Of a stretch of 64,000 nucleotides of DNA, positions 1-15,283 are shown piece after piece. Position 1 is the stretch's first letter. Every line of letters starts with the position of its first letter. Source of the DNA: a virus; IMG/VR virus record IMGVR_UViG_3300007754_000004, positions 1 through 64,000 of that record; one strand, written 5' to 3'. The notes under the pieces are model-generated. The model was given only the letters and a program-made list of their open reading frames with translations, did not search any database and was not told where the DNA came from. Position numbers and translations under genes: made by a program.

Positions 1-174
1 CCCTCTAGGGGTAGGCAGGTATTGAGACCGGGTTTTCGAGGTCATAGGCCCGTTATCGAGTTTCGGTTGCCATCCCTCTAGGGGTAGGCAGGTATTGAGA
101 CTTGGGAACGTGATCTACACGTCATCTGATTCCGTGGTGTTGCCATCCCTCTAGGGGTAGGCAGGTATTGAGAC
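1..174 (-). CRISPR. CRISPR array end: 36-bp repeat GTTGCCATCCCTCTAGGGGTAGGCAGGTATTGAGAC, 37-bp spacers, truncated by the window start
   Basis: Identical repeats at 1-28 (partial), 66-101 and 139-174; unique 37-bp spacers at 29-65 and 102-138. Minus-strand orientation is inferred from the leader-like region on the right and from neighbouring gene orientation. Confidence 0.93.
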
Positions 175-374
175 TCTGGGGTCTCTCGATCTGCTTAAAT
201 AGCGGATCGAGAGGGTAGTTTTCGAGCGGGTTACTTATGCACAGGGTTATCCACAGGTTGTGGGGGGACTCTGGGGCTGTCAAAGATCGGGATTCTCTTG
301 GAATCCTGGTAGGTTACTTCCGCGCGAGCGGGTCCTGGGTTTCAGGCACCACGGACCCGCTCGAAAGGGCGGGG
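175..374 (-). promoter_or_regulatory. Probable CRISPR leader with a 13-bp hairpin (183-213) and tandem DnaA-box-like 9-mers (235-243, 247-255)
   Basis: Non-coding gap between the last repeat and the stop of ORF 375-614; CTCTCGATCTGCT-taaat-AGCGGATCGAGAG inverted repeat; TTATGCACA and TTATCCACA. Confidence 0.55.
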
Positions 375-614
375 CTACCCCAGCTTGGGATGGGGCTTGT
401 TCACGGTAAACTCCAGGTCCGGGATCTCCTGGGAGATGGCTGCGATTGCCTCTCGGGCTTCCTTGGCGGACTCGGAGATGGTATCGGGGAAGTGATCCTC
501 GATGGGCCCTACTTGTCGCTCCCAGGTAGCCGTAAGAGCCAACCCGGTGGCTTCCAACTGGCCGATCGCCTCGGAGATCTTCGTGAGCTGGAGAGTGAGG
601 AAGGCGGCGTTCAT
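375..614 (-). CDS. hypothetical protein (79 aa)
   Basis: ATGA overlap with upstream ORF; part of a coupled minus-strand gene train. Confidence 0.65.
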   Translation of the reverse strand: MNAAFLTLQLTKISEAIGQLEATGLALTATWERQVGPIEDHFPDTISESAKEAREAIAAISQEIPDLEFTVNKPHPKLG

Positions 615-7948: not shown

Positions 7949-8635
7949 CTACTCCCGGTTGTCGGTGACTTCCTTTCCAGCCAGGAAGCGGGCTTCCACC
8001 CACCCCTCTCCCTCGACGTGGAACTTGTGGTCCTCAGTCACGACTACGGTGGTGCCGTCCTCAAAGGTCAACTTGACCCAATTGTCCCGCACGCCGTTGT
8101 TGAACGTATTGGTCACCCGGCTGGTCGTGATCCCACCCTCCGGGCTCCAGGTCAGCACCTCGGGACGGAGGCCCTCCTCCACGATCTCCCGAATCGGGAC
8201 CTGCTCCCCGTTGGCGAGATGGATGAGGGTACCGCCATCGAAGCAGGAGAAACCGTCGAGTTTTTCTGACCCTACGATGCTGGGGAGCCTCCCCGGCCGC
8301 CTCGCGGCGTGGGTCTTCCACCAGCCCTCAAACTCTTTCGGGTTCTTAGACTTGTTCTGGCTCCCCATCGGAGCCGTGTGGGAGAACTTGCTGAAGCTGG
8401 TCGCTTCCAGCTCGTCCTCAGGATCGACGGCGTCCCCCCAGACCATGTCGAGGAATGCTCGACCTCCCTTCACCTCGGGCTTGTTGGGGCTGAACTTCTC
8501 AGCCAGCTCCAGGGCGATCTTGAACTTGTCGTAAGCGGCGTCATAGACCGCGTCGGATACCTCCGGGCTCCCCGCTCGGTAAGCGGCATTCCACTGGATA
8601 AGCTGGGCGAGCTGGGCTGCGATCTTGGACGCCAT
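7949..8635 (-). CDS. ligA: NAD-dependent DNA ligase, N-terminal part (130 aa) fused to a 98-aa split-intein N fragment
   Basis: YRAGSPEVSDAVYD (domain Ia), HTAPMGSQNK, active-site EKLDGFS, then the intein start CFDGGTLIHL. Confidence 0.93.
   Translation of the reverse strand: MASKIAAQLAQLIQWNAAYRAGSPEVSDAVYDAAYDKFKIALELAEKFSPNKPEVKGGRAFLDMVWGDAVDPEDELEATSFSKFSHTAPMGSQNKSKNPKEFEGWWKTHAARRPGRLPSIVGSEKLDGFSCFDGGTLIHLANGEQVPIREIVEEGLRPEVLTWSPEGGITTSRVTNTFNNGVRDNWVKLTFEDGTTVVVTEDHKFHVEGEGWVEARFLAGKEVTDNRE
7952..8245 (-). mobile_element. split intein N fragment (IntN, 98 aa)
   Basis: Block A CFDGGTLIHLANG and block B VTEDHKF; the ORF stops with no block F/G. Confidence 0.92.
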
Positions 8636-10397: not shown

Positions 10398-11600
10398 CTA
10401 CCCCAACAGGTCGTCGAATGAAAGTTTCTTCCTAGGTGGGCGGGAGTCTGCCTCCGAATCGATCTCCGCCTGATCCCACGGTCGCAGTTGCCTGTTCCAA
10501 TGTCTGATCCTGGCGTCGGAGAGCAGGAGATAACTCTCCTGCTTTTCGATACCCACAAAATCACGATCCGTGGACAAGGCAGCGATCCCGGTGGACCCGC
10601 TCCCCAGGAAGGGGTCCAGCACCGGGCCCTCTCCGGGGAACTCTTCCAAGAGCCACTTCATGATCGCAGAGGGTTTGACTGTCGGATGGTGGTTCCCTCT
10701 CTTGCGGCCCTCGACGAAGTATTTCTCCATGCCCTCCGGGATCCCTCTCCGCTCTACACCCGCGGTGATATCCCGGTCAGGGAAGTGTTGTTGGAGATCA
10801 GCCAGCTCGGTGGGGTCTTCAGACCCCGGGTACCAGAGATACTCGCCCGTCACACCTCGGGCGAGGTGAGCTGTCCCGGCGTTTCTCTCCGTCTGGGAAG
10901 CCTTCGCCGTGTAGAAGACCTCTCCAGGTTCCTGAGCGAGGAACAAGGCGTCTCGGATTTCAAATCCCTGGTCTTCGGCATGACAGGCCCCCGTGTGACC
11001 GGTAGGCTGGTCTTCGGGAGCGATGAGCATCAGGTGAGCCCCGGGCTTGAGAGCCCTCCAGATCTCTTCCAGCCAGGGGGGAGGGTCTGGGGTAGACCAG
11101 CCTCGGATAATCGCTCCATGAAGCGATGCGTCCTCGTGTCGAGACCAGTCATAGGACTCGGGCTCCAGGCAGATGACGGACACCCCGCCGATGTGGGTCG
11201 GGGTGATCATCGTGTAGAGGTAGTCCAGTAGCTCTTGGGGTAGATCCCGGGTCATAGTCTCTCGCCTTATTTGCTTGAAGAAGCGGGAGGTGTCCCCTGA
11301 AGCCGGGCAGCCAGGGCCGCAAATCCAGTGGGCAACGGTCTCACCCCCTTCCCGCCGACAGCCGGGTCGGTGTATGAGAATCAGGTTCGGGGGCCAGCGG
11401 CCTTCGGCGTTGGTAGGCTGGAATCCTGCTTGTTGCCCGTAGGTCTGCCGGTCGTTCCGAGTTGGCTGAAACGGTCGCTTGTGGTCTCCGTTGGACGAGA
11501 TCCTTGAGGCGTCGATGTTCAACGCCCCGGCTCCGTGAGCGAGAGTGTTGGCGGCGAGGGTGCTCTCTGCCAAGGGCTTTCTCGCGACCGTGACGTTCAC
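10398..11600 (-). CDS. beta-class amino (N6A/N4C) DNA methyltransferase, C-terminal/SAM-binding part (400 aa)
   Basis: ARKPL..LNID..RI, GRWPPNL, SRFF, HPTVKP, VLDPFLGSGSTG, FVGIEK; no intact DPPY. Confidence 0.85.
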   Translation of the reverse strand: MNVTVARKPLAESTLAANTLAHGAGALNIDASRISSNGDHKRPFQPTRNDRQTYGQQAGFQPTNAEGRWPPNLILIHRPGCRREGGETVAHWICGPGCPASGDTSRFFKQIRRETMTRDLPQELLDYLYTMITPTHIGGVSVICLEPESYDWSRHEDASLHGAIIRGWSTPDPPPWLEEIWRALKPGAHLMLIAPEDQPTGHTGACHAEDQGFEIRDALFLAQEPGEVFYTAKASQTERNAGTAHLARGVTGEYLWYPGSEDPTELADLQQHFPDRDITAGVERRGIPEGMEKYFVEGRKRGNHHPTVKPSAIMKWLLEEFPGEGPVLDPFLGSGSTGIAALSTDRDFVGIEKQESYLLLSDARIRHWNRQLRPWDQAEIDSEADSRPPRKKLSFDDLLG

Positions 11601-12196
11601 CCATCCATCTCCAGAATGTTCTCCTGACGGGAGAACAGGGGCTCAGGGCTCCAGTGAGTCCAACAGCGTGCTTCGTATACGGCTGCGGCCCCCACAACCA
11701 CCTGCTCCCTGTTGTCTGCGATCCTCTGGCTCCGGGTGGCGTCCTGACCACAGACGGTGCAGACAGCTCGCAGCTTAACCACGTCCTCCGCTTCTGCCAT
11801 CAGCAGGGGAGCGGGTCCAAAAGGATGCCCCCGGTAATCCAGGTCCAGAGTCGCGATGATCACCCGGTGGCCCCGAGAGGCCAGAGTCCGGGCAACCTGG
11901 ACAACATCCCGGGGGAAGAACTGTCCTTCGTCGATCCCTACCACCTGCACTTCCTTCGGGACCTGAAGCATTCTCTCTACATCCTGTGATGGAATCATCT
12001 CACTCGGAAAGCGGGCATCGGAGTGGGAGTGGATATCGCCGGAGTAGCGAGTGTCGATATCCGGCTTGAAGCATACGACCTTCTGCTTCGCGATGGTGGC
12101 TCGCCTGAGCCGTCGAATCAGCTCTTCTGACTTTCCCGAAAACATTCCCCCAGCGATAACCTCGATCCAGCCTGATTGACTCCTGAACTGTCGCAT
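11597..12196 (-). CDS. tdk: thymidine kinase
   Basis: GGMFSGKSEELIRR, FKPDIDTRY, IDEGQFF, LDLDYRGHPF, CTVCG, YEARC. Confidence 0.95.
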   Translation of the reverse strand: MRQFRSQSGWIEVIAGGMFSGKSEELIRRLRRATIAKQKVVCFKPDIDTRYSGDIHSHSDARFPSEMIPSQDVERMLQVPKEVQVVGIDEGQFFPRDVVQVARTLASRGHRVIIATLDLDYRGHPFGPAPLLMAEAEDVVKLRAVCTVCGQDATRSQRIADNREQVVVGAAAVYEARCWTHWSPEPLFSRQENILEMDG

Positions 12197-12205
12197 CTCA
12201 ACCTC

Positions 12206-12766
12206 CTACCAAACGGTCGCTTTCCCTTCGTGGAAGCGAGAGGGAGTTGCTTCCTCCTGGTCTTGATACCGGCCTAGATAGAGACGAGGAGCACCGGTCA
12301 TGCCCATAAACCAGATCTGGCAGATGCGAACGTTGGGGAGCACTCGGACGGGGTGAATTACGCTCATCTCCAGTGTGATCGTCCCCCGAAAGCCGGTGTC
12401 GATAAACCCCGCCGTCGCGTGAATCTGCATCCCCAGCCGGCCCACACTGGACCGACCATCGACCTTCATCACGTAGTCCCTCGTGTGAATCTTCTCGACC
12501 GTTCTCCCCAGGTACAGCGTCCCCGGGACGAGGACGAGGCCCTCCTCTGGAATGGTCAAGCGAGTCGTCGGATTCTCCCCCGACATAGACAGAGGAGGCG
12601 GGTGTGGGCGGAATCCCGGCCCGTAGGGGAGGTCCCCATACACCAGCAGCTCCGGATGGAGCCGGAGGTCCAGGCTGTTAGGCCCCACGTTCTTCTGCTC
12701 AAAGGGAGAGATTTCAATCTTTCCCTGAGCCACCTGCCGCTCAATTTCAGGACCAGTCAACACCAC
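12206..12766 (-). CDS. dcd: dCTP deaminase
   Basis: GPNSLDLRL, DGRSSVGRLG, TAGFIDTGFRGTITLE, RICQI; start set at the GTG with a GGAG SD. Confidence 0.92.
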   Translation of the reverse strand: MVLTGPEIERQVAQGKIEISPFEQKNVGPNSLDLRLHPELLVYGDLPYGPGFRPHPPPLSMSGENPTTRLTIPEEGLVLVPGTLYLGRTVEKIHTRDYVMKVDGRSSVGRLGMQIHATAGFIDTGFRGTITLEMSVIHPVRVLPNVRICQIWFMGMTGAPRLYLGRYQDQEEATPSRFHEGKATVW

Positions 12767-12975
12767 GTTGCAACTCCAGCAAGCAGGGCGAATCGGTGGA
12801 AGCACCCAGCACACAAGACCCGCTCTCGTAGGTGCCGGGGGACGACTTGACGCCAGAAGTCGTCGGGGACGCGAAAATCGTAATTCATCACGACCCCGCA
12901 GACCTTACAGCTCATCTGCTGGTCTCGTCGGATCGGCCTGGGGGACGGGTTCACGGACACAACCCCACCCATCAT
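12757..12975 (-). CDS. small CxxC...CxxC zinc-binding protein (72 aa)
   Basis: ATGA overlap with the MTase-N stop; CKVC and CAGC. Confidence 0.6.
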   Translation of the reverse strand: MMGGVVSVNPSPRPIRRDQQMSCKVCGVVMNYDFRVPDDFWRQVVPRHLRERVLCAGCFHRFALLAGVATWC

Positions 12976-13754
12976 GGTTTGCGTGCTGTTAACACACATT
13001 CCCATGCCGGTTTTAACGCCGTCCCCCAGCCATCCCATGCAGCGGCTTCCGGTGTCCGGTGGACCTTGTCCGGCCTGTAGTCCGCCTTCAACCCGTTCTT
13101 CGCCTTTCCCGTAGCCCCACCCTTGTCCAGAGCGACTCGGTCTACAGAGGGGCCATGTCCTTGTACTGAACGAGGGTTGCCAAGGAAACGGTCGATCGCC
13201 TTGGAGATGTTGTGTGATTTGGGAAAGCCATTGGCAAAGGCCCACGACCTCATTTCCACATCCCGGAAGCCGGCCCCCTCCATTGCTGCCGCGAGCCGAT
13301 GGAAGGTCCGAGTCCCGCTGAAAGCCACCACGTAGCCTCCCGGGACGAGCTTGTCATAGACCGCCTTCAACCACCGCTGATGCCACAATTGCATCTGCTG
13401 GGCTTGTTTCCTAGCGACTTTCTGACCAAGCTGGTGACCAGAGACAACCGGCTCACCACCCACTCGCCAATCTGGGTCCTCGCAGGAACACTTACGTGAC
13501 CCCCGTAGACGACCTCCACAGGTAGCACACGTCGGGTTCGACCCACCGAAGGAAGTAGTCCCCCCAAACGCCGGCCAGGGGATCTCTCGATCACCTATCC
13601 CCGGTTGAGCCATTCCGCTGCCTGTCTCCCAGAGACGATCCCACTCTTTCCCCATGAATTCAAGCCCATACGGCGGATCCGTCAGAACCAGACCGATTTC
13701 GGGGACCTCCTCCAACCGGGCTAGGTTGTCTCCTTTCAGGAGGAGAACCCTCAT
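12972..13754 (-). CDS. beta-class amino DNA methyltransferase, N-terminal catalytic part (260 aa)
   Basis: TDPPYGLEFMGKEWD, LVPGGYVVAFSGTRTFHRL, GFPKSHNISKAID, GWGTALKPAWECVLTARKP-stop; no FxGxG SAM motif. Confidence 0.88.
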   Translation of the reverse strand: MRVLLLKGDNLARLEEVPEIGLVLTDPPYGLEFMGKEWDRLWETGSGMAQPGIGDREIPWPAFGGTTSFGGSNPTCATCGGRLRGSRKCSCEDPDWRVGGEPVVSGHQLGQKVARKQAQQMQLWHQRWLKAVYDKLVPGGYVVAFSGTRTFHRLAAAMEGAGFRDVEMRSWAFANGFPKSHNISKAIDRFLGNPRSVQGHGPSVDRVALDKGGATGKAKNGLKADYRPDKVHRTPEAAAWDGWGTALKPAWECVLTARKP

Positions 13755-15283
13755 GACTTGCCCAGCCCGTCGAGGATCGCCTGATCAATCTCGGCTCCGA
13801 GATCTTCGGCCTCACTCATCGCGGTCTCCTTGAGGGTCAAGATTCGCCTCTGGGGGAACACTACCCGGGCCTTGAACGGATCTGGCTTCGCGTGGTCTCT
13901 CGCCTTGAGAGTCTGGAAGAGAACCTCGTTGGCTTTCTCCAGGTCTGGATCCACCCAGGATGCCGTGACGATATCTGAAGACCGCTCGGCCTCGTTGCTA
14001 TAGCTGAGGTGAGTCAGGTTGTAGGGGTACTCGCTGCCGGCCTTACGGAGCTTCTCAGCCGCTTTGTAGCCCTCCCGGGAGATCTGGAAGAGGACCACGA
14101 TAGCGATCCCCATACCCCGGCGGAAGTTCATCGACAGCCGCTTGAGGTTCCTCAAAACCTCGTTGAGCCGCTCCGTGGTGCTCGGGACCCACTTCCGCGG
14201 AGCCATGAGGCCGGCGTGATCGACGAAGATCATGTGGAAGGGACTCTGCTGGTAAATCAACTCCGCCCGAGCCCGAAGGTCCGAGACCATGTAGTCAGAT
14301 TTATCCGGGTCGCTGACCTCAATGTGGAGAGCCCCATATCCGGGGTGGGTCTTCTTCTTCGGATCGAGAGGATCCGGACACACGTAGTCCCCGTTGAGAT
14401 CCGGGACGACGTAGTTTCGGAAGAAGTCCTCCTGCTCGTCAGTGAGGGAGCCGTCTCGGAGCCCCATGTAGGGGATGGGCGGGTGGATCTTCTTGAACTT
14501 CTCGTGTCGCGAGTGCATCGCGATGAGCATGTTCCGACACTGCTCGTAGGGCATCTCCAGAGAGAGGAAGAGGACGCTGTTCCGGTAGAACACCGTTTGG
14601 TTGTAGGCCCAATTGAGGGCGTAGGTGCTCTTGAGGCCGCCTGTAAAGGCGGCGTGCGTCCACAACTCCGCTCGCTTGGCTCCCTTGAACGCCTCGTCGA
14701 ATTGGGTGATCCCGGTGAAAAACCCGACCCCGGCTTTGGGGTCCGCCTTCACACGATCATATCGGGCGAGAGAGTCGTGACCGTCGCTGGTCACGTTGCC
14801 GTAGAGTCGCTGCCCCGTCGTCGGGGTCACAATGTCATGACTCCTCGACATGACATACTGGATGGCGTGGTATGGGCCCTTGAGGATCTTCTCAACCCGC
14901 CCTTCTTTGAGCGTGATCCCGTCCTTCACGATCCTGGCGGCTTCCGTCAGGATCTCCTTCATCGTTCGGGTTCGCCGGTCCTCCGCCCTCTCGTTGAGCC
15001 GCTGAAGAAAATCTCCCTGATAGCGAGGGGTCATCGCGATCAAGTGTTCCAGCCGGTCTACTACCTCCATCTCTTTCTGGCGGGTGAAGTGCTCCCGCAG
15101 AGAGGTGTAAGCAGGGACATGCTGGTGCTGTCGGACAAAATCCGACAGGTAGGTCCAAATCGCGGTGTCCTCGACCTGCTCGAAACCCAGACCAGCGTTC
15201 GCGAGAGCGAAATGGTTCTCTAGAGCGAGGGCTTTGTCGTCCCTCGGATTTGCCGTGAAACACGACCTGAGCAGGATCTTCAC
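13751..15283 (-). CDS. dnaB: DnaB-like replicative helicase
   Basis: Variant Walker A AFTGGLKS, LSLEM, IFVDHAGLM, FQISREG, SNEAERSSDIV, KARD. Confidence 0.8.
   Translation of the reverse strand: MKILLRSCFTANPRDDKALALENHFALANAGLGFEQVEDTAIWTYLSDFVRQHQHVPAYTSLREHFTRQKEMEVVDRLEHLIAMTPRYQGDFLQRLNERAEDRRTRTMKEILTEAARIVKDGITLKEGRVEKILKGPYHAIQYVMSRSHDIVTPTTGQRLYGNVTSDGHDSLARYDRVKADPKAGVGFFTGITQFDEAFKGAKRAELWTHAAFTGGLKSTYALNWAYNQTVFYRNSVLFLSLEMPYEQCRNMLIAMHSRHEKFKKIHPPIPYMGLRDGSLTDEQEDFFRNYVVPDLNGDYVCPDPLDPKKKTHPGYGALHIEVSDPDKSDYMVSDLRARAELIYQQSPFHMIFVDHAGLMAPRKWVPSTTERLNEVLRNLKRLSMNFRRGMGIAIVVLFQISREGYKAAEKLRKAGSEYPYNLTHLSYSNEAERSSDIVTASWVDPDLEKANEVLFQTLKARDHAKPDPFKARVVFPQRRILTLKETAMSEAEDLGAEIDQAILDGLGKS

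Follow-up and report, generated by a model that had tools for sequence, protein, structure and literature searches.

The first 64 kb of an 84.4-kb IMG/VR record (IMGVR_UViG_3300007754_000004), referred to below as the window, contain two minus-strand genes, A and B, that probably encode the subunits of one heteromeric DNA methyltransferase of the beta class (N6-adenine or N4-cytosine). The enzyme would belong to a three-module phage family in which the active site forms only when A docks to the S module of B. Gene A is a single module, defined by motifs IV-VIII. Gene B comprises a T module (xVARKPL via GTGALNID and GRWPAN to GGASRFF), a segment that we call Dd, for dead duplicate, and the S module ((F)YxAKxxxxER via motif X and motif I). 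In the assembly we propose, A would supply motifs IV-VIII, including the catalytic DPPY, and S would supply motif X and motif I for binding S-adenosylmethionine (SAM), with a single Rossmann fold assembled in trans. T would be the DNA-recognition module. Dd, a copy of the catalytic half from which DPPY and the substrate loop have been lost, is probably a scaffold that carries T beside the active fold. A:S would then be the catalytic unit and T on Dd the recognition unit, fixing genetically the "division of labour" of beta-class enzymes.

The two genes carry complementary motifs. Gene A contains ...LTDPPYG... (motif IV) and stops after ...GWGTALKPAWECVLTARKP, with the C-terminus ...ECVLTARKP; it also has a four-Cys zinc-knuckle insert, NPTCATCGGRLRGSRKCSC, and the segments GFPKS and GWGTALKPAWE. 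Its TARKP end is the last strand of the half-fold. The Pfam family PF01555 matches residues 22-181 of gene A, covering profile positions 3-90 of 221, and Pfam finds neither motif X nor motif I in this protein. Gene B starts with MNVTVARKPLAESTLAANTLAHGAGALNID (MNVTVARKPL...) and carries NHHPTVKP and LDPFLGSGS further on, and PF01555 matches its residues 176-358 against profile positions 35-216. The catalytic motif IV, (D/N/S)PP(Y/F/W), is present as DPPYG in gene A and absent from gene B. Along the operon the motif order across both genes is IV-VIII, recognition module, X, I, which is the beta order. Because A has no SAM motifs yet keeps DPPYG invariant, and B keeps the SAM motifs invariant without a catalytic motif, a composite active site is the simplest reading. 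A DPPY motif favours N6-adenine as the methylated base. The first-pass annotation of this DNA, made from the letters alone, had reported both genes with these motifs, and both open reading frames (ORFs) are there on the minus strand.

Each gene represents a large family. Metagenomic proteins matching the A or the B query number in the thousands for each. A search of 5.8 billion proteins with A returned many matches of 200-290 amino acids (aa) at 40-52% identity that span all of A, and nearly all of them terminate within a few residues of RKP. In an alignment of 30 A-family proteins, DPPYG, the four Cys, GFPKS, and G244, T245, K248 and P249 of the GTALKP motif are invariant. An (R/K)KP-type motif lies within a few residues of the C-terminus in nearly all 30, with K259 and P260 at least 90% conserved. 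The four-Cys insert (NPTCxxCGGRxRG..KCxC, gene A residues about 73-91), which is probably a zinc knuckle, lies between motifs IV and V in all A-family proteins and is missing from P0114, a single-chain phage methyltransferase. The same search with gene B gave many matches of 364-529 aa at 33-41% identity with the full T-Dd-S layout, beginning a few residues before (A/V/L)RKPL, as well as shorter Dd-S proteins without T. Neighbouring clusters in the atlas are viral (82-100% of the members for which a taxon is recorded).

Hidden Markov models built for the four modules were used to classify 369 collected proteins. The commonest class was T-Dd-S (115 proteins), followed by A alone (about 104), Dd-S (63) and a single-chain A-T-S form (50). 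Rarer classes were T-T-Dd-S (8), A-T-Dd-S (5), A-T (5), Dd-S-A (3), T-T-T-Dd-S (2), T-Dd-S-A (1) and A-T-A-T-Dd-S (1). A is thus found fused at either end of the Dd-containing protein, and such fusions are a classical sign that the separate proteins act jointly. The order A-...-S of the fusions matches the beta-class order, and S-A matches the unpermuted order of strands 1-7. Fusions keep both RKP strands, for example ...VIVCRKQKGEDMHKSHLIYIGRKPL... in P0038. Some relatives carry inteins: within motif X (HP|...|TVKP) of the Dd-containing subunit in P0039, P0051 and L008:8328-10241, and, in one Dd-S-A fusion (P0267), ahead of GFPKS in its A part. Inteins typically sit in functionally essential sites, and we therefore count those in motif X as support for function.

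Structure predictions point the same way. AlphaFold modelled the fused homolog P0038 (A-T-Dd-S, 577 aa) with a predicted local distance difference test score (pLDDT) of 82.9 and a predicted template modelling score (pTM) of 0.84. This model aligns to CcrM over 222 residues (Z 20.9, root-mean-square deviation 2.6 A, model range 1..548), to M.BceJIV over 209 of 250 residues (Z 19.5, 2.2 A), to M.RsrI (Z 19.4) and to EcoP15I Mod (Z 19.5). The window's own B protein, modelled from B-family sequences only (pLDDT 89.3, pTM 0.82), aligns to the same beta-class enzymes over residues 227-384 only (74-99 residues, Z 6.0-6.6). Other Rossmann domains align to it separately, from about residue 30 or 109 up to 228 (Z 5-6). 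The roughly 130 extra aligned residues in P0038 must come from A, which means that A and S make the methyltransferase fold. In these models Dd does not complete S; Dd and parts of T are predicted to form a separate alpha/beta domain. A single Rossmann fold with both halves is seen in the fused P0038 model; of the window's chains, B alone was modelled, and there the S half is uncompleted.

The models also bear on whether B could stand by itself. Dd and S might together make a complete, non-catalytic SAM-binding fold; B could then, for example, bind DNA in a SAM-dependent manner, act as a regulator or catalyse with unorthodox residues, and A would have another partner or be idle. In favour of this, the Pfam match of B 176-358 spans almost all of the PF01555 profile, B 169-366 aligns without a break to small complete phage methyltransferases, among them that of Synechococcus phage S-CAM4, and residues in Dd are strongly conserved. 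Yet Dd and S are not one methyltransferase fold in the B-only model, A is fused to Dd-S in several orders and adjoins it in every record, and an invariant DPPYG in A without SAM motifs makes sense only if the SAM site is borrowed. We consider a self-contained B unlikely.

Several observations weigh against an obligate A-B enzyme. The only A gene is broken right after DPPYG in two related huge phages: a frame change follows DPPYG in the 435.8-kb complete phage (G001, L099:2905-4922), and two in-frame stops lie around a 3-codon insert after DPPYG in another (G005, L103:5796-7217). The interruption could be recoding, a further split or inactivation, and A may thus not always be functional. Free T genes also occur in phages whose Dd-containing subunit has a fused T, and these are hard to place if T docks on Dd. 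The alignment used for P0038 included single-chain A-T-S sequences, which fixed the register of A-only rows and may have biased the model toward A:S pairing; the B-only model is an independent control for this bias. Domain contacts in the models were read from alignment ranges, that is, from the first and last aligned residue only. In the phage collection the full B architecture is absent from cultured phages, no place covering at least 80% of the query. Finally, the module counts for the window's phage cover the 84-kb record alone, which CheckV estimates at 16% complete, and more A or T genes are possible. Even so, we think that the joint enzyme is the probable explanation of the two genes.

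The same interruptions of A could be taken to mean that both genes are functionless, decaying remnants, an outcome the first-pass annotation had allowed for. We give this almost no credence. In the window both ORFs are intact and translationally coupled, and every invariant family residue is kept. Homologs at 40-60% identity are full length and retain the motifs, which indicates purifying selection.

The T module of gene B opens with the NVTVARKP strand, continues through GAGALNID and GRWPPNLIL, and ends with SRFFKQ. All of 24 aligned T modules begin with a conserved ..tvaRKPL consensus. Across nine records T modules share the first ~35 residues, the GRWPAN strand and a C-terminal GDxGGASRFFKQ, and their middle is widely divergent. 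A specificity module with fixed docking elements should look like this, with conserved ends and a variable middle, and T is presumed on this ground to recognise the target. No T module turned up in a solved structure when the PDB was searched by sequence.

Between T and S, gene B has ~110 residues with no counterpart in single-chain enzymes. Profile-profile comparison with hhalign aligned residues 126-189 of A with 171-237 of B (E 5e-5), making Dd homologous to the motif V-VIII part of A. Dd has no DPPY or motif IV and no loop between the last two strands. It keeps PTGHxGAC..EDxGFEIRD nearly invariant, as motifs X and I are invariant or nearly so, in 146 B-type relatives, and it is retained in 146 of the 146 aligned members that carry it. 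The degenerate catalytic-domain copy proposed by the first-pass annotation is therefore real. Its DPPP, offered as part of that copy, is no equivalent of DPPY: we rejected it as a decayed motif IV because it aligns to the helix before motif V, at a position unconserved in relatives. The pattern PTGHTGAC had 51 matches in 185,579 cellular genomes, about the number expected by chance, and one of them (L120) lies with the system; this rarity is shown for the exact motif only. The S module of gene B contains FYTAKASQTER, motif X (NHHPTVKP) and motif I (DPFLGSGS).

The layout of the window family differs from that of single-chain relatives. Single-chain phage beta-class methyltransferases (PF01555, phrog_67; Salmonella phage 9NA/Sasha and many mycobacteriophages; P0112, 525 aa, and P0114, 437 aa) have the same A, T and S in the same order. 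They read A, then ARKPL and the middle module, then ...GGASRFFYCAKPSQKERNAG...HHPTVKP...DPFMGSGTTG. The window's T is 59-63% identical to that of P0114 and P0112 over the conserved segment, the best BLASTP local alignments covering 18-20% of gene B. The segments on either side of the split are contiguous in the single chain, as the first-pass annotation had stated (...KPAHEPIVVARKPLIGTVVENVLEHGNGGINID... in P0114). The single-chain enzymes differ in being one polypeptide with no Dd and one ARKP strand, T running straight into the first S strand (GGASRFFYCAKPSQKER). Relative to them, the window family has Dd inserted at the T/S junction and the chain cut after A.

The ARKP repeat on the two sides of the split (TARKP at the end of A, MNVTVARKPL at the start of B), together with the position of dcd and tdk between the halves, might suggest that a dcd-tdk cassette recently broke a single-chain gene at its ARKP codons, leaving newly obligate partners or decaying halves. 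The two ARKP copies use different codons, gcacgcaaacca and gcgagaaagccc, and no DNA repeat was found at the junctions flanking the split. The codon differences, at synonymous positions, show that this is no recent target-site duplication. Neither is the repeat chance, because the A family ends at (R/K)KP and T modules start at RKPL. The split is also conserved among relatives, a check that had been proposed from the start: A ending in RKP and T starting with ARKPL are family-wide, and in relatives A lies next to T-Dd-S (L004) or is parted from it by unrelated genes. Moreover, since the single-chain enzymes lack Dd, B is more than the latter half of such a gene. A recent break is very improbable on these grounds. 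The split is family-wide and old, with large metagenomic families of both A-type and B-type proteins, and the notion of a fractured gene particular to this genome has to be dropped. So has the picture of two halves of one chain, since the unit is three modules, A, T and Dd-S, in which T may be fused to Dd-S, fused to A, or free. A split-intein "fractured gene" of the type described by Dassa et al. 2009 was also rejected. Pfam finds no intein or Hint domain in A or B, as first stated.

Related loci, gathered by a protein pattern and a DNA pattern with whole viral records searched, show how fluid the arrangement is. The Dd-containing system was found in about 17 viral records, many of them contigs of 95-536 kb and most not near-complete, and in one metagenome-assembled genome (MAG) contig. 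CheckV rates two as 100% complete, the 435.8-kb record, which has terminal repeats, and a 536-kb record, and places a 497-kb record at 94%. All of the ~17 have one Dd-S and at least one T, with A present wherever the flanks are long enough; in each record whose flanks suffice, a single Dd-S is accompanied by one or more A and one or more T, all inside a few kb. In L004, DnaB, A and T-Dd-S are directly adjacent, which is the window's order without inserted genes. In L083, L086, L092 and L100, A is followed by 1.3-2.6 kb of other genes and then T-Dd-S. The gap contains genes for an HNH endonuclease and an MT-A70 methylase in the case of L100, and for another methyltransferase in L099. The window is one arrangement of this conserved but fluid locus.

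Some relatives have multiplied A and T. G003 has T-Dd-S, A and then five free T genes. L008:5541-11855 has six free T, an intein-containing Dd-S and two A, plus one more short ORF resembling T. In L005:10919-18707, on a 126-kb IMG/VR contig, Dd-S is followed by six A and six T, all separate ORFs; every A there has DPPYG and ends ...VGRKP, every T starts MIVITVARKPL, and all T but one end ...RFFKQVxR or a close variant. The MAG contig L120 also has an A/T array. The arrays of L005, L008 and L120 suggest a multispecific, combinatorial methyltransferase. In the window's phage, one A, one T and one Dd-S are present in 84 kb, no extra A, T or S copy and no free T gene were found in that record, and its T is fused to Dd-S; this fragment would hold the minimal set of one A and one T-Dd-S.

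A bolder proposal, which we offer tentatively and hold to be somewhat less probable than its negation, is that a shared Dd-S core takes interchangeable A halves and T modules, docking via terminal strands (the xVARKP start and the GGASRFFKQ end of T). If so, huge phages with A and T arrays could use one core to generate many specificities and so escape many restriction systems, and the window's phage would be the minimal, one-specificity form.

The last 8 codons of gene B (10401-10424) encode an acidic-hydrophobic tail, LSFDDLLG. Across about 146 relatives the Dd-containing subunit ends in a consensus S(L)DDLFGF, present even just before A in Dd-S-A fusions. Such a tail could be a docking peptide for A. 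It also presumably resembles sliding-clamp-binding peptides, and this raises the question of whether the complex, if real, serves protective sequence-specific methylation at all. It might instead act on single-stranded DNA, replicating DNA or RNA, or be tethered to the replisome through the tail (SLDDLFGF consensus). The cluster lies directly downstream of a DnaB-like helicase here and in ten related loci, and some beta-class enzymes do act on single-stranded DNA or RNA (PMC7544214). Against such a role, neither a sliding-clamp gene nor a second protein with such a tail was found in the 84 kb, and the variable T modules argue for sequence-specific recognition. We assign a non-protective function a low probability.

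The genes around A and B are listed in the table. They form a minus-strand run of overlapping genes (helicase, A, 72-aa ORF, dcd, tdk, B and a 121-aa unknown ORF) in a record that, at 16% estimated completeness, is a fragment of a very large phage, a marine one with a G+C content of ~61%.

Features of the methyltransferase locus in the window (positions are those of the window)
Feature	Position	Strand	Basis or remark
DnaB-like helicase gene	13751-15283	-	PF03796; directly upstream of gene A
Gene A, putative catalytic half-methyltransferase, 260 aa	12972-13754	-	ORF; PF01555 profile positions 3-90 only
72-aa Cys-rich ORF, CKVCG...CAGC (CxxC...CxxC)	12757-12975	-	zinc-ribbon-like; overlaps A stop (ATGA) and dcd start
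dcd, dCTP deaminase	12206-12763 (approximate)	-	PF22769 E 2e-37; phrog_1663
tdk, thymidine kinase	11597-12196	-	PF00265 E 2e-50
Gene B, 400 aa, GTG start	10398-11600	-	T-Dd-S; PF01555
T module, gene B residues 1-115	11256-11600	-	homologous to middle segment of single-chain enzymes
Dd, gene B residues about 116-228	10917-11255	-	hhalign against gene A; family alignments
S module, gene B residues about 229-400 plus stop	10398-10916	-	PF01555 positions up to 216; PDB beta-class alignments

Both methyltransferase genes are translationally coupled to the gene upstream, as first proposed: the start of A overlaps the stop of the DnaB-like gene as ATGA (13751-13754), and the start of B overlaps the stop of tdk as GTGA (11597-11600). 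The first-pass annotation placed dcd and tdk between the halves; both are there, with the 72-aa ORF as a third intervening gene that it had missed. This ORF has no Pfam match and no homolog among the related loci, and dcd is not found at the equivalent position in them. Homologs of tdk lie beside or within the methyltransferase cluster in L008, L102 and L091. We rejected dcd and tdk as functional parts of the enzyme because the intervening genes vary between relatives, though tdk recurs nearby; since the genes between A and T-Dd-S differ, the system does not include dcd or the small ORF. All three would be passengers in a variable locus for replication and nucleotide metabolism that lies downstream of DnaB. 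DnaB homologs (40-52% identity) adjoin the cluster in ten related loci, and in L005, L084 and L086 the helicase match is in pieces, which suggests inteins or insertions. Elsewhere in the window, the N-terminal part of an NAD-dependent ligase (7949-8635, minus strand) ends in an intein N-half, with a weak PF14890 (Intein_splicing) match below cut-off.

Amino-methyltransferases are normally single chains or dimers of complete folds, and here a Rossmann fold apparently comes from two gene products. In the literature we found no description of a split beta-class enzyme, of the Dd domain or of A and T gene arrays. Confirmation would make this the first beta-class DNA methyltransferase family known to be split in nature and a hard-wired form of the "division of labour" proposed for beta-class dimers; huge phages with A and T arrays, as in the relatives, might then have a new way to methylate against restriction with several specificities. 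Specificity swaps and engineered methylation tools could build on the conserved docking ends of T as a natural scaffold. Annotators should not take the thousands of "partial" PF01555 proteins in viromes for pseudogenes.

Recognition as an exchangeable or multiplied module is familiar from Type I (HsdS) and Type IIB (BcgI B) systems, and relatives of the window's phage have up to six or seven free T genes. Multispecific Bacillus phage C5-methyltransferases likewise have tandem recognition domains. The window's T differs from HsdS in that it is unrelated in sequence and is fused, not free, and the window's system has no restriction partner.

A partner without motif IV is also retained in the MT-A70-type heterodimers METTL3-METTL14 and ciliate MTA1-MTA9 (MTA1c), whose distant fold similarity to the P0038 model gives a Z of about 10. 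In METTL14 and MTA9 the fold is complete and the active site eroded, and in those complexes the active subunit itself binds SAM. In the window, by contrast, the chain with the dead half has the only SAM motifs and the catalytic chain has none. A METTL3-METTL14-type pair of full folds was rejected, since gene A lacks motifs X and I and Dd and S are not one fold in the model. The two-subunit methyltransferase or active/inactive heterodimer first suggested for this DNA thus survives in part: co-occurrence, fusions, complementary motifs and models support joint work and a dead copy, and do not support two full folds.

Parallels also exist within the beta class itself. Beta-class enzymes split recognition and catalysis between two protomers (PMC7544214). 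M.EcoP15I Mod2 and CcrM have the same fold and place recognition and catalysis on different protomer-like units (PMC7544214), as proposed here. M.EcoP15I and CcrM are homodimers of complete, identical folds, whereas the window family is predicted to build one fold from two chains and add a dead half-fold. Two-polypeptide methyltransferases are known in nature only for the C5 enzymes M.AquI and M.EcoHK31I, in which a single fold also comes from two genes whose products must associate (PMC3404938). Those are C5-cytosine enzymes, cut in the variable region or at motif IX alone, and are isolated examples, lacking a dead duplicated half as well as separate recognition genes. The window pair belongs to PF01555 by its motifs and fold. 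Judged by motif content and the model of the fused homolog, it is predicted to be of the M.AquI type in the broad sense, with the parts of one catalytic fold on two gene products.

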